Positions 1,062 through 13,250 of a stretch of DNA of 13,250 bases are shown here, one piece after another. The DNA lies in the UHGV virus genome UHGV-0070257; one strand, 5' to 3'. How positions within the stretch are numbered: position 1 is the first letter of the stretch; the number at the start of each line of letters is the position of its first letter. This DNA is from a virus. The translations under genes and the position numbers were made by a program. The notes below the pieces were generated by a model. That model saw only the letters and a program-made list of their open reading frames with translations, had not been told where the DNA came from and did no database searches.

Positions 1062-1799
1062 ATGACTACACCAAACCCACTGGCGCCGGTAAAGGGTGCC
1101 ACCACCACGCTCTGGATTTATTCCGGATCGGGTAACCCCTTCGCCAACCCATTATCGGATGTTGACTGGACGCGCCTGGCAAAGATTAAAGACCTGCAGC
1201 CCGGTGAACTGACTGCCGAATCAAACGACGACACCTATCTGGACGACGAAGATGCCGACTGGACTGCTACCGCGCAGGGGCAGAAATCGGCGGGGGAGGC
1301 CAGTTTTACGCTGGCCTGGAAACCTGCCGAGAGCGGGCAGCAGGATCTGGTTCGCTGGTTTGATGACGGTACCGTGCTGGCGTACAAAATCAAATACCCG
1401 AATGGCGCCATCGATGTGTTCCGTGGCTGGGTAAGCAGCCTGGGTAAAACGGTGACGGCAAAAGACACCATTACCCGTTCTGTCAAGATCAGCAACAACG
1501 GCAAACCAGGTCTTGCTGAAGACAGCGCTGCTGCAGCGATTGCCGTAACCGGCGTCAGCCTGGATAAATCGACCACCACCGTTGCGGTTGCTGCCACCAC
1601 CACGCTGAATGTCACCGTGGCGCCAGCCAGCGCAAGCGATCCATCTTTCCGGGCCACCACCACGGATGCAGGTAAAGCCACAGTGACTGTCGCCGGTACG
1701 GTTCTGACAGTAACCGGCATTGCCGCCGGAACCGCCGACATTATCGTGATGACCAACGACGGGCTTTTTGTCGCGACCTGTAAAGTCACCGTTTCCTGA
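1062..1799 (+). CDS. V: major tail protein, lambda V-like (245 aa) with C-terminal Ig-like (Big_2-type) domain
   Basis: RBS GAGG 5 nt upstream. Translation ...VKGATTTLWIYSGSGNPFANPLSDVDW.RLAKIKDL.PGELTAES.DD.YLDDEDADWTATAQGQKSAG..SFTLAW...FRGWVSS.GK.VTAKD.ITR... matches lambda gpV as recalled (246 aa). C-terminal T/V/A-rich beta segment ending TVLTVTGIAAGTADIIVMTNDGLFVATCKVTVS is typical of the Ig-like decoration domain. Confidence 0.93.
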   Translation: MTTPNPLAPVKGATTTLWIYSGSGNPFANPLSDVDWTRLAKIKDLQPGELTAESNDDTYLDDEDADWTATAQGQKSAGEASFTLAWKPAESGQQDLVRWFDDGTVLAYKIKYPNGAIDVFRGWVSSLGKTVTAKDTITRSVKISNNGKPGLAEDSAAAAIAVTGVSLDKSTTTVAVAATTTLNVTVAPASASDPSFRATTTDAGKATVTVAGTVLTVTGIAAGTADIIVMTNDGLFVATCKVTVS

Positions 1800-1835: not shown

Positions 1836-2243
1836 ATGTTTTTAAAAAGTGAGCCGTTCGAACGCAACGGCAAGACCGTCACGCTCTACGAACTGTCGGC
1901 GCTGCAGCGTATTGAGCATCTTGAACACCTGAAGACGCTGGAAAGTATCACCGATGCCGACATGCAGGCGGCGATGGATATGACGATTAAATCCGGCGCA
2001 CTGCTGGTGGCCATGTCTTTATGGCATGGACATCCCCTGAAAGGGACGCACAAAACACCGAAAGAAGACGTTGAGCAGATCCAGAATGAAGTGCTGATGA
2101 CCTGGCCGCTGGAGATTGTTTCCGCTGCAGAGTACAGCGTGAAGCTGTTATCCGGCATGGTGCCGCTGCAGGAAGCGAATGATCCAGAGGATATCGCTGT
2201 GACTGAGCCGGTCAGTCTGGAAAAGTCCTCGCCAGCGAGCTGA
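1836..2243 (+). CDS. G: tail assembly chaperone, lambda G-like (135 aa)
   Basis: RBS GGAG. Translation MFLKSEPFERNGKTVTLYELSALQRIEHLE...GALLVAMSLWHGHP...EPVSLEKSSPAS parallels lambda gpG as recalled (MFLK...VTVTLSELSALQRIEHL...FLVAMSLWHNHP). Confidence 0.9.
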   Translation: MFLKSEPFERNGKTVTLYELSALQRIEHLEHLKTLESITDADMQAAMDMTIKSGALLVAMSLWHGHPLKGTHKTPKEDVEQIQNEVLMTWPLEIVSAAEYSVKLLSGMVPLQEANDPEDIAVTEPVSLEKSSPAS

Positions 2244-2572
2244 CATTCGTCCTGAAACTGGCGCGTGAATTTCGCCGCCCGGACTGGCGCGCCATGCTTG
2301 CTGGTATGTCGTCAACGGAATACGCCGACTGGCGAACGTTCTACCAGGACAATTTTTTTAATGATGCGCAACTGGATGCACATTTTTCCTCGCTGATGCA
2401 TATCGTCATTACCGCGCTTGACCCCAAAACCACATCAACCCCTGCCAGCTTCAGCCTGCTTTCACCTTCTGCGGAGGATATTGCCGATGATGAACCTGGT
2501 GACGCTGTGCTGATGGCAAAGGCCGAGGGCATTTCAGGAGGTGTTCGCTATGGCCCAGACGGCAGTGGGTGA
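1836..2572 (+). CDS. T: G-T fusion tail assembly chaperone made by programmed -1 ribosomal frameshift near the end of G
   Basis: The -1 frame relative to G is open from 2207 to stop 2572 (the track shows only its internal-Met part, 2294..2572) and has no ribosome-binding start of its own. It overlaps the start of H. This is the universal G/GT arrangement of long-tailed phages. The shift must occur between 2207 and 2243. Confidence 0.75.
2219..2225 (+). promoter_or_regulatory. candidate -1 frameshift slippery site G_GAA_AAG
   Basis: This is the only A/G-homopolymeric heptamer inside the 37-nt overlap window (2207-2243). It occupies the position equivalent to lambda G_GGA_AAG, differing by one base. 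The A-site Lys codon AAG can re-pair on AAA. Confidence 0.5.
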
Positions 2573-5066
2573 CCTGGTCGTTAACCTTGACGTTAATTCG
2601 TCAAAGTTCAACGAGCAGATGGAGTACGTAAAAAGGCAGTTTAAGCAGACGGGTGACGCAGCGAATGACTCGGCGCTGAAGGTGCAGCAGTCATTTACCC
2701 GCCAGGAGAGCGCCGCGAAGAAGGCCGGCATTTCTGTAGGACAGTACAACGCGGCGATGCGTATGCTGCCTGCGCAGTTTACGGATATTGCCACCCAGCT
2801 GGCCGGTGGGCAGAGTCCGTGGCTTATCCTGCTGCAGCAGGGCGGTCAGGTGAAAGACTCCTTCGGCGGTATTATTCCGACCTTTCGGGCGTTGCTGGGC
2901 ACCATATCGCCGGTGATGGTAGGTGTTGGCGCGCTGGCTGCCGCCACTGGAGCGGTGGTTTACGCCTGGTATCAGGGCTCGTCCACGCTGTCTGATTTCA
3001 ACAAAACGCTGGTCCTGTCCGGTAACACTGCCGGGCTGACCTCAAACCGCATGCTGGTGCTGGCGAAATCCGGCGAGCAGGCGGGACTCACGTTTAACCA
3101 GACCAGCAGCGCGCTGACGGAGCTGGTCAACGCCGGAGTGCGTGCCGGTGCCCGGTTCGATGAGATGAGTCAGGCGGTAGCGAAGTTCACCGATGCGTCG
3201 GGCGTGCCGGTCGACAAGGTGGCAGCGGCATTTGGCAAACTGACGAATGATCCGACTTCAGGCCTTATTGCTATGGCGCAACAGTTCCACAACGTTACCG
3301 CGGAACAGATTGCTTATGTGGCGCAACTGCAGCGTGCCGGGGATGAGGCCGGGGCTCTACAGGCAGCTAATGATGCGGCGACGAACGGTTTTCGCGAACA
3401 GACAAAGAGCCTGCGCGACAATATGGGGTCGATTGAGACTGCTGCCGACAGCCTGAAGCGTGCCTTTAAATCGATGTGGGATGCGGCGCTCGATATTGGG
3501 CGGCCTGACACCACGCAGGAGATGGTTGCCAAAGCGGAAGCGGCCTTTAAGCGGGCGGATGAAATCTGGAATCTGCGTAAAGGTGATTCTTATGTCAATG
3601 ATGATGCGCGCGCCAGCTACTGGAACGATCGGGAGTCTGCCCGCCTTGCACTGGAAATGGCTCAGCAGCAGGCCAGTGTGGCAAAGGCCACTGAGGATAA
3701 CGCCGCCCGCGAGGCAGTGATTGAATCTGACCGCCAGAAGTATGCCGCGCAGGCGCAGTCGAATTATGCAAAGACGCAGACTGCGCTGGAGAAGTACACG
3801 GCCCGTCAGAATGAACTGAACAAGGCGCTGAAAGACGGACGGATCCTCCAGGCTGACTACAACATCAATCTGGAAGCTGCGAAAAAAGAATACGACGACT
3901 CGCTGAAGAAACCCAAAGCCCCTTCAGCGGTAAAAACACCTGCAGGTGTAAAAAGTGTCGATACTGCCAGCGCACAGACGCTGGAGCTGGAGGCGCAGTT
4001 ACGCACTCTGCAGGAGCATAAGAGCATCACGGATACCATCAGCCAGCAGCGGCTGGAATTGTGGAAACAGCAATCCCGCTTTTCGGTGCTGGAAGAGGCC
4101 GCCAAAAAGCGCGCGCTGACCGCCGATGAAAAATCGGTGCTGGCGAACAAAGACGAGGTACTGGCGCGGGCCGAAGTGAATGCCCGGTTGGGCGATCAGA
4201 TTGTTGCCCAGGAACGGTTAAACCGCCTGCAGGACAGCTCGCAGAAGTACGTTACCCAGATTGGGGAGAAAACACGAGCGCTTGTGGCCGGGGGCAGCAT
4301 GAGCAGTCGCGGCGCGCAGCGGCAAAACGAAGAGGCACAGCTGCGGCAGGGCTGGATGAATGCCGGCGGTACGGACACCGATCAGGGTTATCAGAACGAA
4401 CTGGATGCACTGAAGAAATATTATGCCGCGCAGGACGAGCTACGTGGCAACTGGCAGGCCGGGGCGAAATCAGCGTGGGCTGACTATGCCGATTCAGCAG
4501 CTGATGCCTATGGTTCGATGAAGTCCGCTGCTTCAGCCACATTCGATGGTATCAGCCAGAATATGGCCGATATGCTGACGACTGGGAAAGCAAACTGGGC
4601 AGATTTCACCCGTTCCACGTTGTCGATGCTGACGCAGATCCTGATGAAGCAGGCCATGGCTGGCCTGGTCAGTTCTGCCACTTCTGCGCTGGGTTTTGCT
4701 GGCGGTGGTTTTACCGGGACCGGCGGTAAGTATGAGCCTGCAGGTGTGGTGCACCGTGGAGAGTTTGTCTTTACGCAGGAAGCCACCAACCGAATCGGTG
4801 TCGGCAACCTTTATCGCATGATGCGTGGTTATGCGACTGGTGGCCTGGTCGGGGGGAGTGGCGCTGGCGTTGCTTCTCCTTTTGGTGTCAGCGTGTATGC
4901 ACCGGTTTCGGTTACAACAGGCCAGGGGGATTCCGGTCAGCAGAAAGGAAACGGCGATGCGCTGGGGAAAGCCTATCAGCAGGTGATCAACAGTTCCATC
5001 AGGGAAGGTATCACCAGAGAGGTCCGACCCGGAGGCATTATCTGGAATGCAACAAAACAGAGGTAA
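2550..5066 (+). CDS. H: tail tape measure protein, lambda H-like (about 838 aa from ATG 2550)
   Basis: SD AGGAGGT 2536-2542 then ATG 2550; the track start 2541 is a GTG sitting inside the SD. Translation MAQTAVGDLVV...KKAGISVGQYNAAMRMLPAQFTDIATQLAGGQSPWLILLQQGGQVKDSFGG...YAWYQGSSTLSDFNKTLVLSGN...GGFTGTGGKYEPAGVVHRGEFVFTQEATNRIGVGNLYRMMRGYATGG matches lambda gpH as recalled. Confidence 0.95.
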   Translation: MAQTAVGDLVVNLDVNSSKFNEQMEYVKRQFKQTGDAANDSALKVQQSFTRQESAAKKAGISVGQYNAAMRMLPAQFTDIATQLAGGQSPWLILLQQGGQVKDSFGGIIPTFRALLGTISPVMVGVGALAAATGAVVYAWYQGSSTLSDFNKTLVLSGNTAGLTSNRMLVLAKSGEQAGLTFNQTSSALTELVNAGVRAGARFDEMSQAVAKFTDASGVPVDKVAAAFGKLTNDPTSGLIAMAQQFHNVTAEQIAYVAQLQRAGDEAGALQAANDAATNGFREQTKSLRDNMGSIETAADSLKRAFKSMWDAALDIGRPDTTQEMVAKAEAAFKRADEIWNLRKGDSYVNDDARASYWNDRESARLALEMAQQQASVAKATEDNAAREAVIESDRQKYAAQAQSNYAKTQTALEKYTARQNELNKALKDGRILQADYNINLEAAKKEYDDSLKKPKAPSAVKTPAGVKSVDTASAQTLELEAQLRTLQEHKSITDTISQQRLELWKQQSRFSVLEEAAKKRALTADEKSVLANKDEVLARAEVNARLGDQIVAQERLNRLQDSSQKYVTQIGEKTRALVAGGSMSSRGAQRQNEEAQLRQGWMNAGGTDTDQGYQNELDALKKYYAAQDELRGNWQAGAKSAWADYADSAADAYGSMKSAASATFDGISQNMADMLTTGKANWADFTRSTLSMLTQILMKQAMAGLVSSATSALGFAGGGFTGTGGKYEPAGVVHRGEFVFTQEATNRIGVGNLYRMMRGYATGGLVGGSGAGVASPFGVSVYAPVSVTTGQGDSGQQKGNGDALGKAYQQVINSSIREGITREVRPGGIIWNATKQR

Positions 5067-5069
5067 GCA

Positions 5070-5417
5070 ATGGCGATCGAGCATTTTGCGTGGCGGATTA
5101 AAGCATCCAGCCAGCCGACCCTGAAAAGTAAGGATACCGTCCGTACGGCGCAGTTTGGTGATGGCTATAAGCAGGTTTCAGGTGCCGGGCTGAATGATGA
5201 AACGCTAAGTTATGAGTTTTCATTTACCGGCGAACCGCAAACCGTCCGGGATATTTATGCTTTCCTGCGGCGCCATAAGACGAAATCATTTTCGTTTACC
5301 CCGCCAGGCGGTGATCTTGCGCTGTGGCGCGTTGAGGCAGAAAGCCTGCAGCGCGTCACCAAAAGTAAAACAGTGGAAACCGTATCAGCCACCTTTGAAC
5401 AGGCGTTTGCACCATGA
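5070..5417 (+). CDS. M: minor tail protein, lambda M-like (115 aa)
   Basis: RBS GAGG 6 nt upstream; starts 4 nt after the H stop. Motifs FGDGY.Q...AGLN and SF.FTPP parallel lambda gpM as recalled (109 aa). Confidence 0.88.
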   Translation: MAIEHFAWRIKASSQPTLKSKDTVRTAQFGDGYKQVSGAGLNDETLSYEFSFTGEPQTVRDIYAFLRRHKTKSFSFTPPGGDLALWRVEAESLQRVTKSKTVETVSATFEQAFAP

Positions 5418-6169
5418 GCTTAAACAGTGATTATCAGAAACTTGAGCCGGGCAATGTTGTCCGGCTTTTTGATGTCGATGGCACCGCATTTGGTGTTTCC
5501 GACGTTCTCCGCTTCCACGCCCACAATATTGCCCACACTCCCGATGAAATTGCCGCTGCTGGTGGAGATGAAAATAAGCTACCGGCGAAATCGATCTGGT
5601 GGCAGGGGCAGGAATATAAAGCCTGGCCCTGCCAGATAGAGGGAATTGAGACTGCGACCGACGGGACCAGTGCGCAGCCAACGCTCTCGGTCGCTAACCT
5701 GGATAGTTCCATTACGGCGCTGTGTCTTGCTTATGATGACCTGCTGCAGGCAAAGGTCACCATTCATGACACACTGGCGCAGTATCTGGATGCGAAAAAC
5801 TATCCGGAGGGCAACCCGTCTGGGGATCCTCAGCAGGAAAAGCTGAAGGTGTTTTACATAGACGCCAAGAGCACTGAAACCAACGAGGTGGTGGCGTTTA
5901 CGTTGTCCAGTCCGATGGACCTGCAGGGGCTGATGATCCCGACGCGCCAGTTACATTCGCTTTGTACCTGGTGCATCCGTAACAAATACCGCTCCGGTGA
6001 TGGTTGTGACTACGCCGGAACTCGCTATTTCGACAAACTTAATAATCCTGTTACCGATCCTTCGCGCGATGAATGTAACGGCACGCTCACCGCGTGCAAA
6101 TTGAGGCATGGCGAGGGGAACGAGTTGCCGTTCGGTGGTTTCCCTGGCACATCCCTGATCAGGAGTTGA
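5414..6169 (+). CDS. L: minor tail protein, lambda L-like (251 aa) with C-terminal Cys cluster
   Basis: ATGA overlap with the M stop. Motifs WQGQEYKAWPCQIEG, TSAQPTLSVANL, DPQQEKL, CTWCIRNKYRSGDGCDYAG, CKLRHG and FGGF correspond to lambda gpL as recalled, including the cysteines of its iron-sulfur site. Confidence 0.9.
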   Translation: MSLNSDYQKLEPGNVVRLFDVDGTAFGVSDVLRFHAHNIAHTPDEIAAAGGDENKLPAKSIWWQGQEYKAWPCQIEGIETATDGTSAQPTLSVANLDSSITALCLAYDDLLQAKVTIHDTLAQYLDAKNYPEGNPSGDPQQEKLKVFYIDAKSTETNEVVAFTLSSPMDLQGLMIPTRQLHSLCTWCIRNKYRSGDGCDYAGTRYFDKLNNPVTDPSRDECNGTLTACKLRHGEGNELPFGGFPGTSLIRS

Positions 6170-6887: not shown

Positions 6888-7331
6888 TTAGGTGGACTGT
6901 TCCCCTGGAATTTCCACCCCAAAACCATCCGCATCCCAAGTCTTTTCCCAGACTTCGTAACCTAACTCTTTTAGGCGACTAAAAGTTTTTTTGAAAACAG
7001 TGTTGAAATCATCGTCACTAAGTCCGTCCAACTCAAGATCGCTGAGATGAATATGGAATGTGGAATGACCAATCCGTACCTTTTTGTTGATCTCTGAAAA
7101 AGTCCTTTTGAATATTATTTCAGAGAGTTCATCCCTCGCTTTTTCAACAAGTTGAATTGCATCTTGAGCAGAAATTACTTCATCTTCACGTAATTCGCTA
7201 AGGAAGCTGTTGTCGAGACGTTGAACTATTTCAGCATTCATAGAGCGGTTATTGGATTTTGCTGCATCTTCAATTTTTTCTTTTAATTCAATTGGTAATC
7301 TTATTCTTAGTTGAGGATCTTCTCTGCTCAT
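6888..7331 (-). CDS. Arc/Mnt-family ribbon-helix-helix DNA-binding protein with about 100 aa acidic C-terminal extension of unknown function (147 aa)
   Basis: N-terminus PQLRIRLPIELKEKIEDAAKSNNRSMNAEIVQRLDNSF fits the Arc/Mnt RHH pattern (beta strand with alternating residues, then N-[SA]-E-I-[VY]-Q-R helix), by pattern recognition only. RBS GAGG 7 nt upstream of the ATG on the minus strand. Convergent with K, 6 bp apart. Confidence 0.75.
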   Translation of the reverse strand: MSREDPQLRIRLPIELKEKIEDAAKSNNRSMNAEIVQRLDNSFLSELREDEVISAQDAIQLVEKARDELSEIIFKRTFSEINKKVRIGHSTFHIHLSDLELDGLSDDDFNTVFKKTFSRLKELGYEVWEKTWDADGFGVEIPGEQST

Positions 7332-7366
7332 TTGGTTGCCTCACTCAAAAAGTTCACATTATGTAA

Positions 7367-7440
7367 ATTATGCCCCACGGTGGGGTTGACATCAATGACG
7401 CACGGTGTGACACTTTATGTGTCCCACCGTGGGGCATAAT
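7367..7440. promoter_or_regulatory. divergent promoter/operator region: two inverted copies of ATTATG-CCCCAC(G/C)GTGGGG, overlapping back-to-back promoters
   Basis: Arm 1 (7367-7385, attatgccccacggtgggg) and arm 2 (7422-7440, tcccaccgtggggcataat) are reverse complements at 18/19 positions, and each core is itself near-palindromic. Leftward promoter: -35 TTGATG (minus strand of 7390-7395), 17-nt spacer containing box 1, -10 CATAAT (minus strand of 7367-7372). Rightward promoter: consensus -35 TTGACA 7386-7391, 17-nt spacer, extended -10 TGtGACACT 7406-7414, which would place box 2 at the transcript start. Confidence 0.6.
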
Positions 7441-7450
7441 TGGAGGGGTT

Positions 7451-7618
7451 ATGGAAAAAGCTAAAGATATGTACCAGCGTAAGGTTCGATTTCCTGAAGA
7501 TGTCCGGTTGGCGATAGAGAGAAATGGGGAAGATGAGTGCCGTCAGTTCAATACTGAGCTCATCTATCAGTTGAGGAAAGCGTACGGATTAGAAGGGGGG
7601 AAGAGTGAACAAGCATAA
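7451..7618 (+). CDS. small Arc-like ribbon-helix-helix repressor (55 aa)
   Basis: SD GGAGGGG 7442-7448 then ATG 7451. Translation MEKAKDMYQRKVRFPEDVRLAIERNGEDECRQFNTELIYQLRKAYGLEGGKSEQA is comparable in size and pattern to P22 Arc (53 aa; RWP...NSEIYQR). The track start at 7370 would place the operator boxes inside the ORF and is rejected. Confidence 0.65.
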   Translation: MEKAKDMYQRKVRFPEDVRLAIERNGEDECRQFNTELIYQLRKAYGLEGGKSEQA

Positions 7619-7625
7619 AAACAGT

Positions 7626-7660
7626 GAAACCCAGGAGTGCGCGAACACCCTGGGTTTCTT
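7626..7660. terminator. perfect 10-bp stem-loop (GAAACCCAGG - 13 nt loop - CCTGGGTTTC) with U-rich flanks on both strands; candidate bidirectional terminator/attenuator
   Basis: Read directly: 7626-7635 is the exact reverse complement of 7649-7658. It is followed by TT on the + strand and by ACTGTTTTTAT on the - strand. It lies between the Arc-like gene stop (7618) and the first ATG of the next gene (7692). Confidence 0.45.
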
Positions 7661-7691
7661 ATCGAAGAAATCCTTGGCAGGAAATATCGAC

Positions 7692-8273
7692 ATGAACAGT
7701 GTAACGAAAGAAGAGCTGAACTTCCATGGCATTTCTCTGCAGCCGGCTCCTGATATCGATGGCATCTGGCTGACCGCTAATCAGATTGGTTACGCGCTTC
7801 AATATGCAGACGATAAAGCTGTTCAGCGAATTTTTGCTCGTCATATTGATGAGTTTACAGAAAAAATGACAAGGGTGGTCAAGTTGACCACCCCTGGTGG
7901 GCATCAGGAAACTAGGGTTTTTTCTCTACGTGGCGCACACATGGTCGCTATGTTTGCCAGAACTCCGGTTGCTAAAGAATTCCGACACTGGGTGTTAGAC
8001 ATTCTGGACCGTGAGGTATCTATTAACTTTCCAGTACCGAAGATGCTCAGCGATCGAGAAGTCCACGCCCACAATGCAAACGCAATGTTCGATTATTTCG
8101 AGATTATGTGTGAAGCATGGTTTAACCAGATAGAGCCAGCGTTGAGGGCGATTGAGTCTCCGCTCGCAGGCCGTCTTCACGATCGTTTCAATGATGGGGC
8201 CGCGTTTATGTACATGATTAAGACTCATGCTGAACTACAGCTTCAGGAAGGAGAAAGGCCAAGAATCTACTGA
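7692..8273 (+). CDS. antirepressor-like protein with Bro-N/AntA-type N-terminal domain (193 aa from ATG 7692; alternative GTG start 7605 gives 222 aa)
   Basis: Segment NFHGISLQPAPDIDGIWLTANQIGYALQYADDKAVQRIFARHIDE...PGGHQETRVFSLRGAHMVAMFARTPVAKEFRHWVLDIL fits the phage antirepressor N-terminal domain pattern (F.F...GE.W..A..I...L... ending F..WV). Family call is pattern-based, not searched. Start is ambiguous: GTG 7605 has a G-rich SD but puts the 10-bp hairpin inside the ORF. Confidence 0.6.
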   Translation: MNSVTKEELNFHGISLQPAPDIDGIWLTANQIGYALQYADDKAVQRIFARHIDEFTEKMTRVVKLTTPGGHQETRVFSLRGAHMVAMFARTPVAKEFRHWVLDILDREVSINFPVPKMLSDREVHAHNANAMFDYFEIMCEAWFNQIEPALRAIESPLAGRLHDRFNDGAAFMYMIKTHAELQLQEGERPRIY

Positions 8274-8296
8274 ATTTGCAATGCTGCAAATAGAAA

Positions 8297-8320
8297 AGCC
8301 GATAGTTAGGGCTATCGGCT
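8297..8320. repeat. perfect 9-bp inverted repeat AGCCGATAG-TTAGGG-CTATCGGCT between the two antirepressor-like genes
   Basis: Read directly. No T-tract follows, so it is more likely a protein-binding palindrome or RNA processing/stability hairpin than an intrinsic terminator. Confidence 0.4.
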
Positions 8321-8350
8321 ATCCATAAATCTGTCATAAGGGTCCAACCA

Positions 8351-9094
8351 ATGACTTCATTAAATTTAGCAGTAAATAGCGCTAATGTCACCGAGAAAAC
8401 CATTGATAGCCAGTACTTGCTGGAGATGGTGAATGCTGCGCGAAAGCAATGCGGTGAGCCGGCTGTCCGAAATAACAAGTTCATTGAGAAGGTTGTTGAT
8501 GAGCTTGAAGGGGAGACCTACACAAAAAGTGTAGGTCGTAAAAATGGTCAAGACATTGAAGTAATTACAATGTCTATCAAGCAAGCCCTCCGAGTAGCCG
8601 CTCGTGAATCGAAAGCCGTTCGACGTTCTCTGGTTGATAAGCTGGAAGATATGCAGGTATTACCAGCGATGCCAAAAAGCAACACAGGTATCACTGAGTA
8701 CCGATTGGCTAAGGCAGAACAGTTGAAAGCCCAGGCATTGGAGAAGAATATCGCGAGCGCGCGGGAAATCATTACTCTGCTTCCTAGATTGGATCCGATG
8801 GCACATCAGGTGCTCACGGCATCGTTGATTAATCCGCTTATTGGTTATGACGCCATCCCGTTACCTGTTATCGAGGAGCATTACCACACTGCGAGTGAGG
8901 TGGGGGAGATGCTGGGGGTTTCTGCTCAGAAAATTGGACGCGTTGCTAACACACACAAGCTGAAGACAGAAGCGCATGGCAAGTTCTTTCTGGACAAGTC
9001 GGCCTACTCAAGTAAACAGGTTGAAGCGTTCCGGTACAACACTAACGGAATTGATGCGTTGCGCCATCTGATTCATGGTGCTGATGTGGCATAA
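8351..9094 (+). CDS. phage antirepressor/regulatory protein, Rha-like N-terminal region and KilAC-like C-terminal domain (247 aa)
   Basis: RBS AAGGG. N-terminal TIDSQYLLEMVNAARKQCGEPAVRNNKFIEKVVDEL resembles the Rha-family pattern. C-terminal HYHTASEVGEMLGVSAQKIGRVANTHKLKTEAHGKFFLDKSAYSSKQVEAFRYNTNGIDAL resembles the Ant/KilAC C-terminal domain. Pattern-based assignment. Confidence 0.6.
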   Translation: MTSLNLAVNSANVTEKTIDSQYLLEMVNAARKQCGEPAVRNNKFIEKVVDELEGETYTKSVGRKNGQDIEVITMSIKQALRVAARESKAVRRSLVDKLEDMQVLPAMPKSNTGITEYRLAKAEQLKAQALEKNIASAREIITLLPRLDPMAHQVLTASLINPLIGYDAIPLPVIEEHYHTASEVGEMLGVSAQKIGRVANTHKLKTEAHGKFFLDKSAYSSKQVEAFRYNTNGIDALRHLIHGADVA

Positions 9095-9685: not shown

Positions 9686-10276
9686 ATGCAGCAAGAAGTT
9701 ATGACCCAAATTGAACTGAGCGGGATTCTTGGCAAAACCTTTGGTAAGACGCATCATCGTTTAATTAGCTCAACCCGAGAAGCCTGTCGAGCGCTAGCTG
9801 CAACAGTGAAAGGGTTTGAGGCCTTCATGAATTCAAGTAAACAGCGCGGTCTGACATATGCAGTTTTTCGAGGAAAGAAAAATATTGGGGAAGATGATTT
9901 AGGCTTTCCGGCGACAGGTGAAGTGATCCGGATCGTGCCAGTAGTTATTGGTAGTAAAAAAGCTGGCCTGTTACAAACCATATTAGGTGCCGTCCTTGTT
10001 GTAGCTGGCTACGCTTTGTCAGGTTTTACTGGCGGTGCAAGTATGGCATTGGTCGCACCCGGTGTTGCATTAATGGCTGGAGGCGTAATCCAAATGCTTT
10101 CGCCACAGCCAGCAGGACTTGCCAGCAAACAGGATGCCGAAAATCGGGCTTCGTATGCATTCGGTGGTGTAACTAACACTGCTGCTCAGGGTAATCCAGT
10201 TCCGCTTCTATACGGACGCAGGCGTATTGGCGGGGCGATCATCTCTGCTGGTATATACGTCGAAGACCAGCAATAA
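9686..10276 (+). CDS. I: tail assembly protein, lambda I-like (196 aa)
   Basis: SD GGAGAAG then ATG 9686. Translation ...GEVIRIVPVVIGSKKAGLLQTILGAVLVVAGY...GGVIQMLSPQP...GNPVPLLYGRRRIGGAIISAGI parallels lambda gpI as recalled (...IHIVPRVAGAKSGGVFQIVLGAA...GGVAQMLAPK...QGNVLPVLYGEMRVGSRVVSQEI). The track start 9506 overlaps the lipoprotein gene and the terminator and is rejected. Confidence 0.85.
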   Translation: MQQEVMTQIELSGILGKTFGKTHHRLISSTREACRALAATVKGFEAFMNSSKQRGLTYAVFRGKKNIGEDDLGFPATGEVIRIVPVVIGSKKAGLLQTILGAVLVVAGYALSGFTGGASMALVAPGVALMAGGVIQMLSPQPAGLASKQDAENRASYAFGGVTNTAAQGNPVPLLYGRRRIGGAIISAGIYVEDQQ

Positions 10277-10296
10277 CAAAATAATCTTCCTTTCAG

Positions 10297-10320
10297 GCTA
10301 CCTTATGGTGGCTTTTTTTA
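10297..10320 (+). terminator. terminator-like hairpin (GCTACC-TTAT-GGTGGC, one G-U pair, then TTTTTTTA) between I and J
   Basis: Its 3' arm plus T-tract (GGTGGCTTTTTTT) nearly duplicates that of the 9651-9675 terminator. Confidence 0.4.
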
Positions 10321-10330
10321 TGGGCGCAAT

Positions 10331-13250
10331 ATGGCTACAGCAATCCCGATTAAAGGCCGCAAGGGCGGCAGTTCCAGTTCACGAACCCCTACCGAACAGC
10401 CTGATGATCTGCAATCTGTAGCGAAGGCCAAAATCCTCGTTGCGCTTGGGGAAGGGGAATTTGCAGGGCAATTAACCGGAAAAAATATCTACCTGGACGG
10501 CACGGCGTTGGAAAACTCCGATGGCACCAAAAACTTTAGCGGCGTGACGTGGGAATTTCGCGCGGGAACTCAGGCACAAAATTACATTCAGGGCATTCCC
10601 GGTACCGAAAACGAAATCAACGTTGGAACTGAAGTATCAAGCGCAACAGCCTGGACGCGTACTTTCACCAACACCCAACTATCAGCCGTTCGCCTGCGAC
10701 TGAAATGGCCTTCTCTGTTTAAGCAGGAGGACAACGGCGATCTGGTAGGGTATTCCATCAATTATGCAATAGACCTGCAAACTGATGGTGGGACCTGGCA
10801 AACCGTTCTTAATACCAGCGTAACCGGCAAAACGACGTCTGGTTATGAGCGCAGCCACCGTATTGATTTACCGCAGGCTGGCAGCACCTGGACAATCCGA
10901 CTGCGTAAGATTAACGCTGACGCAAACAGCGCCAAGATCGGCGACACGATGACGCTGCAAAGCTTCACGGAGGTGATTGATGCCAAGTTGCGCTATCCGA
11001 ACACCGCGCTGCTGTACATCGAATTCGACTCAAGTCAGTTCAATGGTTCGATTCCACAGATATCCTGTGAACCACGTGGCCGGGTGATCCGAGTGCCTGA
11101 TAACTATGACCCCGATACGCGGACTTATAGTGGTACATGGCAGGGCGCGTTTAAGTGGGCCTGGACCGATAACCCGGCGTGGATATTTTACGATCTGGTT
11201 ATTACCGATCGCTTTGGTCTGGGTAATCGCCTGAGTGCAGCCAACATCGATAAATGGACGTTGTACCAGGTATCGCAGTATTGCGATCAGCCGGTACCGG
11301 ATGGAAAGGGTGGAAGCGGGACAGAGCCACGCTATACCTGTAACGTCTATGTTCAGGACAGGAATGACGCTTACACTGTGCTGCGTGACTTTGCGGCTAT
11401 ATTCCGGGGTATGACGTACTGGGGCGGTGATCAGATTGTTGCGCTTGCCGATATGCCGAGAGATGTGGATTACGCTTACACCCGCGCTAACGTTATCGAC
11501 GGACGCTTTACCTATTCCAGCAGCACGACAAAAACGCGGTATACCACCGCGCTGGTTTCCTGGTCTGATCCGGGTAACGCTTATGCGGATGCGATGGAGC
11601 CAGTATTTGAGCAGCCTCTGGTGGCCCGGTACGGATTTAATCAGCTGGAAATGACAGCCATCGGTTGTACCCGTCAATCAGAAGCGAACCGAAAGGGGCG
11701 CTGGGGTATTCTCACCAACAATAAGGATCGTGTTGTTTCGTTTGATGTTGGCCTGGACGGAAACATTCCGCAGCCGGGATACATCATCGCCGTGTCAGAC
11801 GAGCTTCTGTCCGGCAAAGTTATGGGTGGCCGCATCAGTGCTGTTAACGGTCGCGTGATAAAACTTGACCGCGTAGTTGATGCAGCAGCAGGCGATCGCC
11901 TTATTATCAATCTTCCCTCCGGTGCGTCACAGAGCAGGACTATTCAGGCGATTAATGGGGAATCAGTCACAGTCACCACGGCATACAGTGAGACACCACA
12001 GGCCGAAGCTGTATGGGTGGTTGAGTCAGATGAACTCTACGCCCAGCAGTATCGAGTTGTCAGCGTCTCCGATAATGATGATGGCACTTTCTCTATTACC
12101 GGCGCATGGCATGACCCGGATAAATATGCCCGTATCGATACCGGAGCCATCATTGACCAGCGGCCCGTGAGTGTAATCCCGCCTGGTAACCAGTCGCCGC
12201 CGGCTAACATTGTGATCAGCTCGTTTTCAGTGGTGCAGCAGAATATCAGCGTCGAAACCATGCGTGTGAGCTGGGACCAGGCGCAGAATGCTATCGCCTA
12301 CGAGGCACAGTGGCGCCGCAATGATGGTAACTGGGTAAACGTGCCGCGCAGCTCCACCACCTCATTTGATGTATCGGGTATTTATGCCGGGCGCTACCTC
12401 GTGCGTGTGCGTGCCATTAATGCCGCTGAAATTTCCTCTGGCTGGGGCTACTCCGAAGAGAAAACGCTGACGGGCAAGGTGGGAAATCCACCGAAACCTG
12501 TCGGCTTTGCGACAACGCCGATCAACTGGGGGATTCGCCTGAACTGGGGATTCCCGGCTAACACCGGGGATACGCTGAAAACGGAAATTCAGTACACCGC
12601 GAACAGTGATTTCTCTAATCCTCTATTGCTGTCGGATGTGCCTTATCCGTCAGCCGAATACACCCAACTGGGACTGAAGGCGGGACAGGAGTTCTGGTAC
12701 CGCGCGCAGCTGGTTGACAGAACGGGTAATGAATCAGGCTGGACCGACTGGGTTCGTGGTGTATCCAACGCGAATGCTGACGACTACCTGGGCGATATTG
12801 CTGATGACTTCCTGACGTCTGCAGACGGTGACCGCCTGACAGGCGACATTGATACCAACCTCGAAGCCGCATGGCAGAACGCGCTGGCCAACCATGCAAC
12901 CGTGGAACATCAGTGGGCGCAGTACGGCGAGGTACGCGCGGATATTCTGGTGGTTAAAACGACCATTGCGCAGGTCGATAAGGCCATGGCTGAAATGTCG
13001 ACGCAGGTGAAGGCGCAGTTCAATAATGTAACTGCCGCACTGGAGGACAAGCTTACTGCCGTGGTTGATGCTACCGGAGCCTCTGCGATTTACACCCTCA
13101 AAACTGGGGTCCGGATTAACGGTGTGATGTATAACGCCGGAATGTCGATTGCGGTGCTGGCGGAGGCGGGTAAGCCGGTAGTCACTCGTGTCGGATTTAA
13201 CGCCAATCAGTTCGTCCTGATGAGTGGCAGCGGTGATACGCAATATTCAC
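10331..13250 (+). CDS. J: host-specificity / central tail fibre protein, lambda J-like, N-terminal about 973 codons (3' end beyond window)
   Basis: ATG 10331 opens a frame with no stop to the window edge; it is absent from the ORF track because it has no stop in the window. Hand translation MATAIPIKGRKGGSSSSRTP...RYPNTALLYIEFDSSQFNGSIP...RVPDNYDPDTRTYSGTWQG...YCDQPVPDGKGGSGTEPRYTCNVY... parallels lambda gpJ as recalled. Fibronectin-III-like repeats at about 12180-12770 (...RVSWDQAQNAIAYEAQWRRNDGNWVNV...YLVRVRAINAAEISSGW...). Confidence 0.9.
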   Translation, partial: MATAIPIKGRKGGSSSSRTPTEQPDDLQSVAKAKILVALGEGEFAGQLTGKNIYLDGTALENSDGTKNFSGVTWEFRAGTQAQNYIQGIPGTENEINVGTEVSSATAWTRTFTNTQLSAVRLRLKWPSLFKQEDNGDLVGYSINYAIDLQTDGGTWQTVLNTSVTGKTTSGYERSHRIDLPQAGSTWTIRLRKINADANSAKIGDTMTLQSFTEVIDAKLRYPNTALLYIEFDSSQFNGSIPQISCEPRGRVIRVPDNYDPDTRTYSGTWQGAFKWAWTDNPAWIFYDLVITDRFGLGNRLSAANIDKWTLYQVSQYCDQPVPDGKGGSGTEPRYTCNVYVQDRNDAYTVLRDFAAIFRGMTYWGGDQIVALADMPRDVDYAYTRANVIDGRFTYSSSTTKTRYTTALVSWSDPGNAYADAMEPVFEQPLVARYGFNQLEMTAIGCTRQSEANRKGRWGILTNNKDRVVSFDVGLDGNIPQPGYIIAVSDELLSGKVMGGRISAVNGRVIKLDRVVDAAAGDRLIINLPSGASQSRTIQAINGESVTVTTAYSETPQAEAVWVVESDELYAQQYRVVSVSDNDDGTFSITGAWHDPDKYARIDTGAIIDQRPVSVIPPGNQSPPANIVISSFSVVQQNISVETMRVSWDQAQNAIAYEAQWRRNDGNWVNVPRSSTTSFDVSGIYAGRYLVRVRAINAAEISSGWGYSEEKTLTGKVGNPPKPVGFATTPINWGIRLNWGFPANTGDTLKTEIQYTANSDFSNPLLLSDVPYPSAEYTQLGLKAGQEFWYRAQLVDRTGNESGWTDWVRGVSNANADDYLGDIADDFLTSADGDRLTGDIDTNLEAAWQNALANHATVEHQWAQYGEVRADILVVKTTIAQVDKAMAEMSTQVKAQFNNVTAALEDKLTAVVDATGASAIYTLKTGVRINGVMYNAGMSIAVLAEAGKPVVTRVGFNANQFVLMSGSGDTQYS

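Follow-up and report, generated by a model that had tools for sequence, protein, structure and literature searches.

A conserved G_GAA_AAG heptamer as the probable site of -1 frameshifting between tail genes G and T of a lambda-like tail module

How does a phage express a tail reading frame that opens one base back inside the preceding gene, when the heptamer available for the shift departs from the classical slippery rule? The question is raised by a stretch of 13,250 nucleotides (UHGV-0070257, hereafter the window), in which the genes, each assigned to its Pfam families, run Z-U-V-G-T-H-M-L-K; all the features described here are on the plus strand. The window comprises tail genes of a siphovirus prophage of the lambda/N15 kind from the Citrobacter freundii complex, and a megablast of positions 1800-2600 against complete E. 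coli genomes gave no match. Upstream, gene V (1062..1799) encodes the major tail (tube) protein with its C-terminal Ig-like domain (Pfam Phage_TTP_12, 1e-66; Big_2, 1e-12) and defines the position of G-T. Downstream comes the tape measure gene H (2541..5066; TMP_2, 1e-71; Tape_meas_lam_C, 3.4e-22), which probably starts at ATG 2550, 3' of an AGGAGG, and overlaps the end of T. Between V and H there are two overlapping ORFs, as in the lambda G/GT type. The zero-frame gene G (1836..2243) has a GGAG 8 nt 5' of its ATG at 1836, ends at TGA 2241-2243, and encodes a tail assembly chaperone of 135 aa (PF06894, Phage_TAC_2, 3.2e-44); in Citrobacter, the protein with exactly this sequence goes under the name phage minor tail protein G. 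The T-frame part of the fusion (2225..2572, stop 2570-2572) matches PF06223 (Phage_tail_T, 1.6e-12). When the window's G is aligned with those of lambda and N15, the upstream ORF is the homologue of gpG and the -1 ORF that of gpT. Taken as a whole, it is very probable that G_GAA_AAG at 2219-2225 is the -1 slip site for gpGT, most likely through a tandem slip, and a downstream helix may compensate for a lower intrinsic slipperiness.

The -1 frame is closed by a TGA at 2204..2206, which sets the 5' limit for a productive shift, so that the frame is open only from 2207 to its stop. A script reproduced this boundary in relatives. The earlier note had read the frame in this way and confined the shift to the final 37 nt of G, with one plausible site, and a codon-by-codon reading of the overlap agrees with it. 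The zero-frame codons are CCG GTC AGT CTG GAA AAG TCC TCG CCA GCG AGC TGA. Since GAA occupies 2220-2222 and AAG 2223-2225 in the G frame, the register G_GAA_AAG is correct, with GAA (Glu) in the P-site, AAG (Lys) in the A-site, and GGA AAA as the -1 codons. When each codon is read with its preceding base, only the AAG to AAA change keeps the first two bases in the -1 partner, and the heptamer is thus the sole Z_ZZN tetramer or heptamer site in the overlap; any alternative slip site within 2207-2243 is ruled out. In genes Z to K, A_AAG occurs in register at 13 of 2131 codons. Exactly one of these is in G, inside the 12-codon overlap, where about 0.07 would be expected, and the bare string GGAAAAG is not enriched in the window (3 occurrences for 1.98 expected). 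The site lies at the position of lambda G_GGA_AAG, with five codons from heptamer to stop in both, and the note was also right that it does not fit X_XXY_YYZ strictly. With G, G, and A as bases 1-3, the P-site half departs from the rule, while bases 4-7 (AAA G, 2222-2225) conform to its A-site half. In a ranking of motifs, A_AAG is the optimal A-site motif in E. coli (PMC4066793).

Public records tell another story, in which there is no frameshift and T is made separately. In them a 92-aa 'tail assembly protein T' (or 'phage tail assembly protein T') begins at ATG 2294, and in E. coli prophages PGAP gives G and T a CDS each. Such a free T is highly improbable. The T frame contains no ATG, GTG, or TTG 5' of 2294, and the first such codon, ATG 2294..2296, has no Shine-Dalgarno (upstream sequence TTTCGCCGCCCGGACTGGCGCGCC) and is inside the conserved T coding sequence. 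In every lineage, the 50 nt separating the G stop from this codon (2244-2293) encode FxLKLAREFxRPDWR, the best conserved stretch of T. Their variation is concentrated at T-frame third positions (0.98 bits, versus 0.28-0.41 at positions 1 and 2), which indicates that they are translated in the T frame. On passing the slip site, the codon-phase entropy signal moves from the G frame to the T frame. The T ORF, though it lacks a start of its own, shows coding selection beginning in the overlap, and its protein is conserved in all lineages starting at the junction. The nucleotide-level selection on the heptamer (see below) also speaks against a free T, and in lambda the GT fusion is the only form in which T is made (PMC5009743). 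The programmed -1 frameshift that the note assigned to G-T is thus supported by the Pfam identities, by T-frame translation upstream of any start, and by the invariance of the heptamer. The predicted gpGT joins G residues 1-130 to 115 aa, for a total of 245 aa, with the junction ...EPVSLEK|VLASELTF..., GTC 2225-2227 as the first post-slip codon, and ...VSLEKVLASELTF as the junction peptide; the exact fusion was not found in the protein collection searched. Public records, including those from PGAP, thus omit the GT fusion and list a free-standing T from an internal Met, when the true product would be the fusion, with a T part that starts 23 codons further upstream. Hundreds of prophages in Citrobacter, Salmonella, Kluyvera, and E. 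coli call for this correction too.

Conservation of the heptamer was tallied in contexts anchored on the downstream T motif, independently of the heptamer itself, so that they were not ascertained by pattern. In this set G_GAA_AAG occurs in 54 distinct contexts, G_GGA_AAG in 10, and A_AAA_AAG in 1, many of the contexts being phylogenetically related and the counts therefore non-independent events. The G_GAA_AAG contexts reach down to G proteins with about 37% identity to that of the window. Neither GAG in place of GAA nor AAA in place of AAG occurs anywhere in the set; in the window's genes, GAA makes up 55% of the Glu codons and AAG 42% of the Lys codons. A matched control is provided by gene L, in which the same in-register heptamer (5836-5842) lies on a conserved Q-E-K: among relatives with at least 86% identity, the heptamer has drifted in 8 of 19 contexts, which read GAA AAA or GAG AAG. 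The drift in L, compared with the invariance in G, supports selection on the nucleotides. As for base 1, which is the wobble position of the preceding codon, it is G after Ala, Leu, Pro, Thr, Met, and Val in every G_GAA_AAG context. The preceding codon is GCG 22 times and CTG 35 times in the downstream-anchored set, with no synonymous alternative, and all four bases appear at the third position of codons -2 to -6. All seven bases of the heptamer are under nucleotide-level selection.

In the proposed mechanism, most ribosomes on G would stop at the G-frame TGA and release gpG, while a minority would slip back one base at the heptamer, read the T frame to 2572, and make gpGT. In the A-site, tRNA-Lys (anticodon mnm5s2UUU) would pass from AAG to AAA with cognate re-pairing. 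In the P-site, tRNA-Glu (anticodon mnm5s2UUC) would pass from GAA to GGA, keeping C36:G and U34:A, with a G:U in the middle. By analogy with lambda, the fusion would bind the tape measure protein through its G part and recruit the tail tube protein through its T part. The note had offered two outcomes for the irregular P-site half, slippage in the A-site only or a lower efficiency, and the first of these is disfavoured. In that case tRNA-Lys alone would re-pair on A_AAG with the P-site tRNA-Glu idle, as in IS1222 (G_CGA_AAG) or Bacillus cdd (A_CGA_AAG). The GAA to GGA change is indeed non-cognate, with a second-position mismatch, and tetramer-only A_AAG sites are used in nature (PMC5009743). 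In E. coli, where one tRNA-Lys decodes both AAA and AAG, A_AAG is the most shift-prone tetramer (PMC5009743, PMC4066793). However, without a strong stimulator the tetramer alone stays near background (0.147% versus 0.112%; PMC4066793). Base 1 moreover has no coding role in G and would never be decoded in the -1 frame if the shift occurred at AAG, yet it is an invariant G, and it becomes A exactly where the site is A_AAA_AAG. Codon bias is no explanation for this, as GCG represents only 33% of Ala codons in the window, and ACG and GTG only 31% and 37% of their families. A-site-only slippage is therefore quite unlikely. The constant G at a wobble position after six different amino acids favours a tandem slip, which we infer from it to be the most likely mechanism, although a different cause, for example an effect of the E-site codon, could account for the conserved base 1.

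It is scarcely credible that RNA polymerase, and not the ribosome, slips on the A run to give a -1 mRNA. There are four consecutive A in the heptamer and six in the A_AAA_AAG lineage, while productive transcriptional slippage takes longer homopolymer runs, of about 7 residues upward. That the site must be AAG and never AAA, and in register with the reading frame, is a signature of tRNA-Lys slippage, and a polymerase would favour AAA_AAA.

The lower efficiency that the note had suggested as its other outcome agrees with in vitro data. The AUG GAA AAG model mRNA of Peng et al. (2019; PMC6924986), whose seven bases are identical to those of the window, was designed as a poorly slipping comparator to G_GGA_AAG for E. 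coli ribosomes, and it has neither natural context nor downstream structure. In the reconstituted E. coli system it gave mainly the zero-frame product at every EF-G concentration, and G_GAA_AAG shifted only when EF-G mutants slowed translocation (PMC6924986). Because this sequence was used as a poorly slipping control, a lower intrinsic efficiency is plausible. The intrinsic slipperiness of the site would probably be below that of lambda, and a helix beginning 5 nt downstream may compensate by slowing translocation. Apart from this model mRNA, our literature search found no phage paper discussing GGAAAAG in connection with a tail or a frameshift.

The candidate long-range helix, which is unproven and comes from a predicted fold (MFE -45.5 kcal/mol, z -2.35), pairs a 5' arm at 2231..2240 (GCCAGCGAGC) with a 3' arm at 2296..2305 (GCUUGCUGGU), the latter encoding the L-A-G of the MLAGM motif with CTT as its Leu codon. 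It encloses a similarly unproven inner helix (2259..2294), in which UGGCGCGU (2259-2266) pairs with GCGCGCCA (2287-2294), plus a small apical stem. Over 21 lineages the outer helix has 82% of its cells paired and 3 pairs changed on both sides, and the inner helix has 80% paired and 4 invariant pairs; the codons of the inner arms, CTG GCG and CGC GCC, show little synonymous variation. No Shine-Dalgarno-like element was found 6-17 nt 5' of the motif in the window, where GTGACTGAGCCGGTCAGTCT contains no GGAG or AGGA-type element; it is likewise missing from most relatives, with the exception of Rahnella (GAGGAG).

The outer helix is a possible stimulator according to this modelling. A stronger proposal is that the heptamer is too weak alone and that its efficiency depends on this helix, which would slow translocation like the dnaX stem-loop and would be fuller in G_GAA_AAG lineages than in canonical ones. 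We regard this dependence as tentative and, on balance, somewhat unlikely. The 5 nt spacing and the pair probability of 0.94-0.99 in the window agree with such a role, and the recovery of shifting on G_GAA_AAG by slow EF-G mutants points the same way. All 10 pairs can form in 36 of the 54 G_GAA_AAG contexts; the lambda type reaches 8 of 10, and the A_AAA_AAG type 7 of 10. One pair changes from A:U to G:C, and another occurs as G:U, G:C, or A:U. However, both arms encode conserved T residues, and this covariation may represent one or two events. The 5' arm pairs better than 96-100% of synonymous randomisations in the window (96%, p ~0.04), N15, and lineages L065, L086, and L090, an excess that is absent in lambda and L062. 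But the total folding energy in the window's clade is not below that of synonymous-codon randomisations (z -0.54), and in the RNAalifold consensus, at -5.5 kcal/mol, no more than a core of 5 bp survives. The Leu codon of the 3' arm is the rare CTT (55) or CTC (8) in 63 of 76 contexts and CTG in 13, when neighbouring Leu codons are nearly all CTG. The helix is nevertheless absent or unpredicted in Rahnella, Phytobacter, and Atlantibacter lineages, all of which carry G_GAA_AAG. For lambda, Levin et al. in 1993 reportedly found that no stimulatory structure was required.

The closest known counterpart is phage N15, and in this respect the window's site is not new. The note had presented the heptamer as a one-base variant of lambda's, which it is, but the identical GGAAAAG has stood in the N15 annotation for over twenty years: in genes 14/15 (AF064539 / NC_001901), positions 10027-10033 carry the legend "slippery sequence for -1 translational frameshift". 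Register (GAA and AAG in the gp14 frame), distance from the G stop (5 codons), and gene order V-G-T-H are the same as in the window, and the two sites align without gaps. Nucleotide identity is 79% between the slip site and the end of T, and 77% over 73% of the whole window. The two differ in the preceding codon, which is GCG (Ala) in N15 and CTG (Leu) in the window, in their G proteins, which are only 59% identical, and in their hosts, E. coli for N15 and Citrobacter for the window. The window also has an Arc/antirepressor-like insertion between K and I which is missing from the N15 match. Our literature search found neither a fusion protein nor a frameshift efficiency for N15.

The lambda G/GT frameshift at G_GGA_AAG is attributed to Levin, Hendrix and Casjens (1993) and to Xu, Hendrix and Duda (2004, 2013). 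Lambda reads GC G_GGA_AAG TGT TCG ACG GTG AGC TGA where the window reads CT G_GAA_AAG TCC TCG CCA GCG AGC TGA. The genes are homologous, and the position of the site and the A-site half A_AAG are the same; a 7-8 bp form of the downstream helix can also be drawn in lambda. The difference lies in base 3, which is G in lambda. The lambda heptamer thus fits X_XXY_YYZ, and its P-site tRNA-Gly re-pairs cognately (GGA to GGG), whereas GAA in the window needs a second-position G:U. Lambda too has one G:U after the shift, but at the third position and not at the middle one. The lambda ratio of G to GT is about 30:1, or roughly 4% shifting (PMC5009743, PMC3296357), and by the same logic the window would be expected to make a low level of fusion that sets its own G:GT ratio.

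Other shift sites share the A-site half. In IS1222, Bacillus subtilis cdd, and IS3, the AAG to AAA movement of tRNA-Lys drives the slip despite a non-canonical P-site half (PMC5009743, PMC4066793), and the IS3 pseudoknot lifts A_AAG to 5.6%. In IS1222 and cdd, however, the P-site CGA cannot re-pair in the -1 frame and strong stimulators are needed, whereas the window keeps two of its three P-site Watson-Crick pairs and has a conserved base 1. The dnaX site of E. coli (A_AAA_AAG, between an upstream Shine-Dalgarno-like element and a downstream stem-loop) also has the same A-site half, its heptamer is used at the homologous position by lineages L062 and L314 of the window's phage family, and a downstream helix at a 5-8 nt spacing is possible. 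Unlike dnaX, neither the window nor N15 has a Shine-Dalgarno-like element 6-17 nt upstream, the window's shifted product is longer than the unshifted one and not shorter, and its expected efficiency is a few per cent rather than ~50%.

In the G family, G_GAA_AAG is the majority form. From the family tree, in which lambda's canonical heptamer and A_AAA_AAG make up one nested clade and the lambda form is a minority, G_GAA_AAG is probably the ancestral state and lambda's heptamer probably a derived one. It is tempting to go further, but the following extension is rather unlikely. The ancestral and dominant slip site of the lambda-G family in enterobacterial phages would be the very sequence that biochemists chose as a poorly slipping control. 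It would work either because a P-site second-position G:U is tolerated or by dependence on the unrecognised helix, a dependence that the later G_GGA_AAG of lambda would have relaxed. Both slipping tRNAs, Glu and Lys, carry mnm5s2U34, so that the G:GT ratio would, if this were true, be doubly sensitive to host tRNA thiolation. The window's G-T site does not overturn current understanding. The G-T family nevertheless provides, at one homologous site, a natural three-allele series (G_GAA_AAG, G_GGA_AAG, and A_AAA_AAG), and as the non-canonical one is the commonest, it is a convenient system for the cost of a P-site second-position G:U and for its compensation by flanking RNA structure. Further searches concern the extent of this family. 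A scan for the exact pattern GGAAAAG-N11-GAGCTGA gave 51 of 120 as G-T loci among the matches listed; these are extra contexts, flagged as pattern-ascertained, from which no abundance count is drawn. Searching IMG/VR with lambda G gave 80 nearly identical copies of lambda, which contributed no further diversity. The scan of genome contigs produced many lambda-identical matches in unrelated taxa, on low-coverage contigs; contamination is their probable source, and they were handled as lambda. The coliphages mEp237 and HK225, which form plaques, have GCG GAA AAG.

The overlap between the tail assembly chaperone gene G and the -1-frame ORF T offers a single place for the ribosome to change frame. 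G ends at TGA 2241-2243, and the -1 frame, shut by TGA 2204-2206, is open from 2207, which confirms all of the coordinates in the earlier note, including the GGAAAAG at 2219-2225, whose GAA and AAG are G-frame codons. When every codon in the overlap is read together with its preceding base, only AAG->AAA retains its first two bases after a -1 move, and therefore there is no other candidate slip site. Bare GGAAAAG is not enriched (3 copies in the window vs. 1.98 expected). In-register A_AAG occurs at 13 of the 2131 codons of genes Z to K. G has a single one, and it falls within the 12-codon overlap, for which the expectation is about 0.07: the placement of the heptamer in the overlap is nonrandom. 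Lambda reads GC G_GGA_AAG TGT TCG ACG GTG AGC TGA and the window CT G_GAA_AAG TCC TCG CCA GCG AGC TGA, so that the two sites are homologous, at the same distance from the stop. Elsewhere in G, the canonical heptamer T_TTA_AAA is in register at 1841-1847 (codons 2-4, ATG TTT TTA AAA); since it is not conserved in N15, which has TTT CTA AAG there, it is probably incidental.

Three lines of evidence argue for a real programmed frameshift. From the junction on, the T-frame protein is kept in every relative (GK(V/A)xxxELxFxxKLAREFxRPDWRxMLAGMSS) with zero indels. Across 21 lineages, codon-phase variation 5' of the heptamer is highest at the third positions of the G frame (1.73 bits), but between the G stop and ATG 2294, the first possible T-frame start, it is the T-frame third positions that vary most (2244-2293; 0.98 bits vs. 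0.28-0.41 at the other two). This stretch is therefore translated in the T frame, and as it precedes the first T-frame start codon, initiation is unable to reach it. The third line is ATG 2294 itself, at which no Shine-Dalgarno sequence was found; G and H each have one. An independent start of T is contradicted by this T-frame selection 5' of ATG 2294, and neither a start codon nor a Shine-Dalgarno sequence is available for it. Transcriptional slippage is unlikely, as there are only four A residues and it would require neither AAG over AAA nor a reading-frame register. The real T part would start at 2225, 23 codons 5' of the annotated Met. Public databases list T as a separate protein of 92 aa beginning at ATG 2294, or of 106 aa in some entries for Salmonella and Citrobacter, PGAP gives G and T as separate genes in E. 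coli prophages, and the predicted 245-aa GT fusion was not found in a collection of 15 billion proteins.

G-T loci were gathered from IMG/VR, species-representative genomes, and phage records, and heptamers were tallied with the downstream T motif as sole anchor to avoid circularity. Among 66 distinct contexts not ascertained via the heptamer, 54 have G_GAA_AAG, 10 have G_GGA_AAG (lambda and E. albertii), one has A_AAA_AAG, and one is an offset artefact; pattern-ascertained loci add at least 40 further G_GAA_AAG contexts. Carriers include prophages of Citrobacter, Kluyvera, Atlantibacter, Buttiauxella, Leclercia, Kosakonia, Phytobacter, Entomohabitans, and Rahnella, with G proteins as little as ~37-40% identical to that of the window. 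The neighboring codons vary both 5' (CTG, GCG, CCG, ACG, ATG, GTG) and 3' (TCC, CCC, CCT, CGC, TAC, CTT, and others). All seven bases are invariant in these lineages: GAG never replaces GAA in the site, nor AAA AAG, and in the window's genes GAA makes up 55% of Glu codons and AAG 42% of Lys codons. The G stop follows the heptamer by 1 to 5 codons, depending on the lineage. Only one codon intervenes at loci L093-L097, L086, L210, L228, L290, L291, and L299 (e.g., AAG CGC TAA, AAG TAC TGA, AAG CGT TAG), instead of five; the length of the G tail 3' of the slip site is therefore unconstrained, while the heptamer is constrained.

A second in-register G_GAA_AAG, in gene L (5836-5842, CAG GAA AAG on a conserved Q-E-K), serves as a matched negative control. 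It is shared with N15, and the -1 frame there closes after 13 codons. The L genes of 80 relatives, each at 86% identity or more, show 19 distinct contexts, of which 8 have drifted to GAA AAA or GAG AAG; this copy is therefore incidental, and amino-acid conservation alone is insufficient to fix these bases. At G-T, something beyond amino-acid conservation holds them. In a midpoint-rooted neighbor-joining tree of 31 de-replicated GT proteins, G_GAA_AAG is found on both sides of the root, and the G_GGA_AAG and A_AAA_AAG (loci L062 and L314) lineages form one nested clade. By parsimony, the non-canonical G_GAA_AAG is probably ancestral in this phage family and lambda's canonical form derived, reversing the view of the window site as a variant of lambda's.

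The A-site half of the window site is of the classic enterobacterial type: in E. coli one tRNA-Lys reads both AAA and AAG, and A_AAG is the most shift-prone tetramer (PMC5009743; PMC4066793). Base 1 of the heptamer falls at the wobble position of the codon before it, with no coding role in G, and it goes undecoded in the -1 frame if the slip occurs at AAG. In these phylogenetically related contexts, base 1 is G in every G_G... site, across six preceding amino acids, and A at A_AAA_AAG alone. In the same sequences, codons -2 to -6 take any of the four bases at the third position, and the share of GCG among Ala codons is only 33%. Such conservation without a coding role is as tandem slippage predicts. 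The anticodon of tRNA-Glu is mnm5s2U-U-C. In the P site, tRNA-Glu would shift from GAA to GGA, keeping C36:G and U34:A and forming U35:G; the tRNA-Gly of lambda is also left with one G:U, at the third position. Thiolation of tRNA-Glu has been described (PMC3296357). These sequence patterns lead us to favor tandem slippage, with moderate confidence. Pure A-site slippage, the Lys-only slip put forward in the earlier note, is disfavored by the conserved base at the wobble position and seems unlikely, and an E-site codon effect could be another cause of that conservation.

A downstream helix may stimulate the slip, although this idea is a tentative and somewhat doubtful one. The MFE fold of 2226-2345 (-45.5 kcal/mol; z -2.35 vs. 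dinucleotide shuffles) pairs 2231-2240 with 2296-2305, starting 5 nt 3' of the heptamer, and within this helix 2259-2266 pairs with 2287-2294. The pair probability of the outer helix is 0.94-0.99 in the window in contexts of 90-220 nt, 82% of its cells are paired over 21 lineages, and three pairs are altered on both sides (e.g., A:U to G:C), but RNAalifold retains a 5-bp core only. The ten pairs can all form in 36 of the 54 G_GAA_AAG contexts, vs. 8/10 in the lambda type and 7/10 in the A_AAA_AAG type; in Rahnella, Phytobacter, and Atlantibacter lineages, the heptamer is kept but the helix is absent. Both arms code for conserved residues. In the 3' arm, Leu (2297-2299) is encoded by CTT or CTC in 63 of 76 contexts, when nearby Leu is nearly always CTG. 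Pairing by the 5' arm is above 96-100% of synonymous randomizations in the window, N15, and loci L065, L086, and L090, but not to that degree in lambda and L062, and the total MFE of the window clade is not below such randomizations (z -0.54). Over the 76 contexts, some T codons are nearly fixed (Leu-26 CTT in 55, Leu-13 CTG in 72, Ala-14 GCG in 73, Asp-21 GAC in 75), and the intervening Arg-15, Arg-19, Pro-20, Ser-30, and Ser-31 use 3-6 synonyms each; the fixed codons fall in the arms of predicted helices. No Shine-Dalgarno-like element was found upstream of the heptamer.

It is plausible that the bare heptamer slips with the lower efficiency suggested; three infectious coliphages nevertheless appear to rely on this site. 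AUG GAA AAG is the poorly slipping mRNA of Peng et al.: with wild-type EF-G it gave chiefly zero-frame product, and it shifted once EF-G mutants slowed translocation (PMC6924986). Sharma et al. measured 0.147% for A_AAG alone vs. a background of 0.112%, and 5.6% with the IS3 pseudoknot, with G_GGA_AAG within the top three heptamers (PMC4066793). Lambda shifts at ~4%, with a G:GT ratio near 30:1 (PMC5009743; PMC3296357). The site type is not new, and the window is one more member: in the N15 record (GenBank AF064539), positions 10027-10033 are annotated as a misc_feature, “slippery sequence for -1 translational frameshift”, and read GGAAAAG in gene 14, in the same register. In mEp237 and HK225, two coliphages that form plaques, the homologous place reads GCG GAA AAG. 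The earlier interpretation is essentially supported, and what remains of interest is that this phage family conserves a heptamer deemed poorly slippery, which is probably also its ancestral one.

The slip site (query 420) is the exact starting point of the megablast similarity to N15 (10027-10408 vs. window 2219-2600), which continues across T into H. The G proteins are 59% identical, and the G genes are too diverged for a match at that sensitivity. T may be far more strongly constrained than G, or the edge may mark a mosaic boundary left by recombination at the junction. Lambda-type G with uniform identity to the query also turned up in the species-genome scan on short low-coverage contigs of unrelated taxa (L073-L085, L101, L103, L105-L107; Neobacillus, Kitasatospora, Pseudomonas, Shewanella, Leeuwenhoekiella, Bradyrhizobium, and others), which looks like contamination of the assemblies by lambda DNA.

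The window is a siphovirus tail module of the lambda/N15-like kind. Its genes, as recognized by Pfam, are Z (105-659), U (656-1054), V (1062-1799, a tail tube protein with an Ig-like domain), G (1836-2243, matching Phage_TAC_2 at 3.2e-44), T (Phage_tail_T, 1.6e-12), the tape measure H (2541-5066), and the tail genes M, L (5414-6169), and K. J is an open frame from 10277 to the window end. A “phage minor tail protein G” identical to the G protein occurs on 231 contigs, most of them from the Citrobacter freundii complex, and N15 is the nearest cultured phage (77% identity across 73% of the window, in three pieces). Between V and G, a GC-rich hairpin (1804-1819, CGGGGC-UGUG-GCCCCG) is followed by CUUUCC; its T tract is weak, its fold z-score is only -1.0, and the terminator scan made no call there, whereas N15 has an annotated putative rho-independent terminator at this place and HK225 an annotated stem_loop. 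Between K and I, an insertion (6888-9094) carries a minus-strand ORF of the Arc-like ribbon-helix-helix type (6888-7331), another ORF with a weak likeness to Arc (7370-7618), a Bro-N/P22 antirepressor C-terminal ORF (7605-8273), and an ORF without a family match (8351-9094), and it resembles a P22 immI-type arc/ant module lying within the tail operon.
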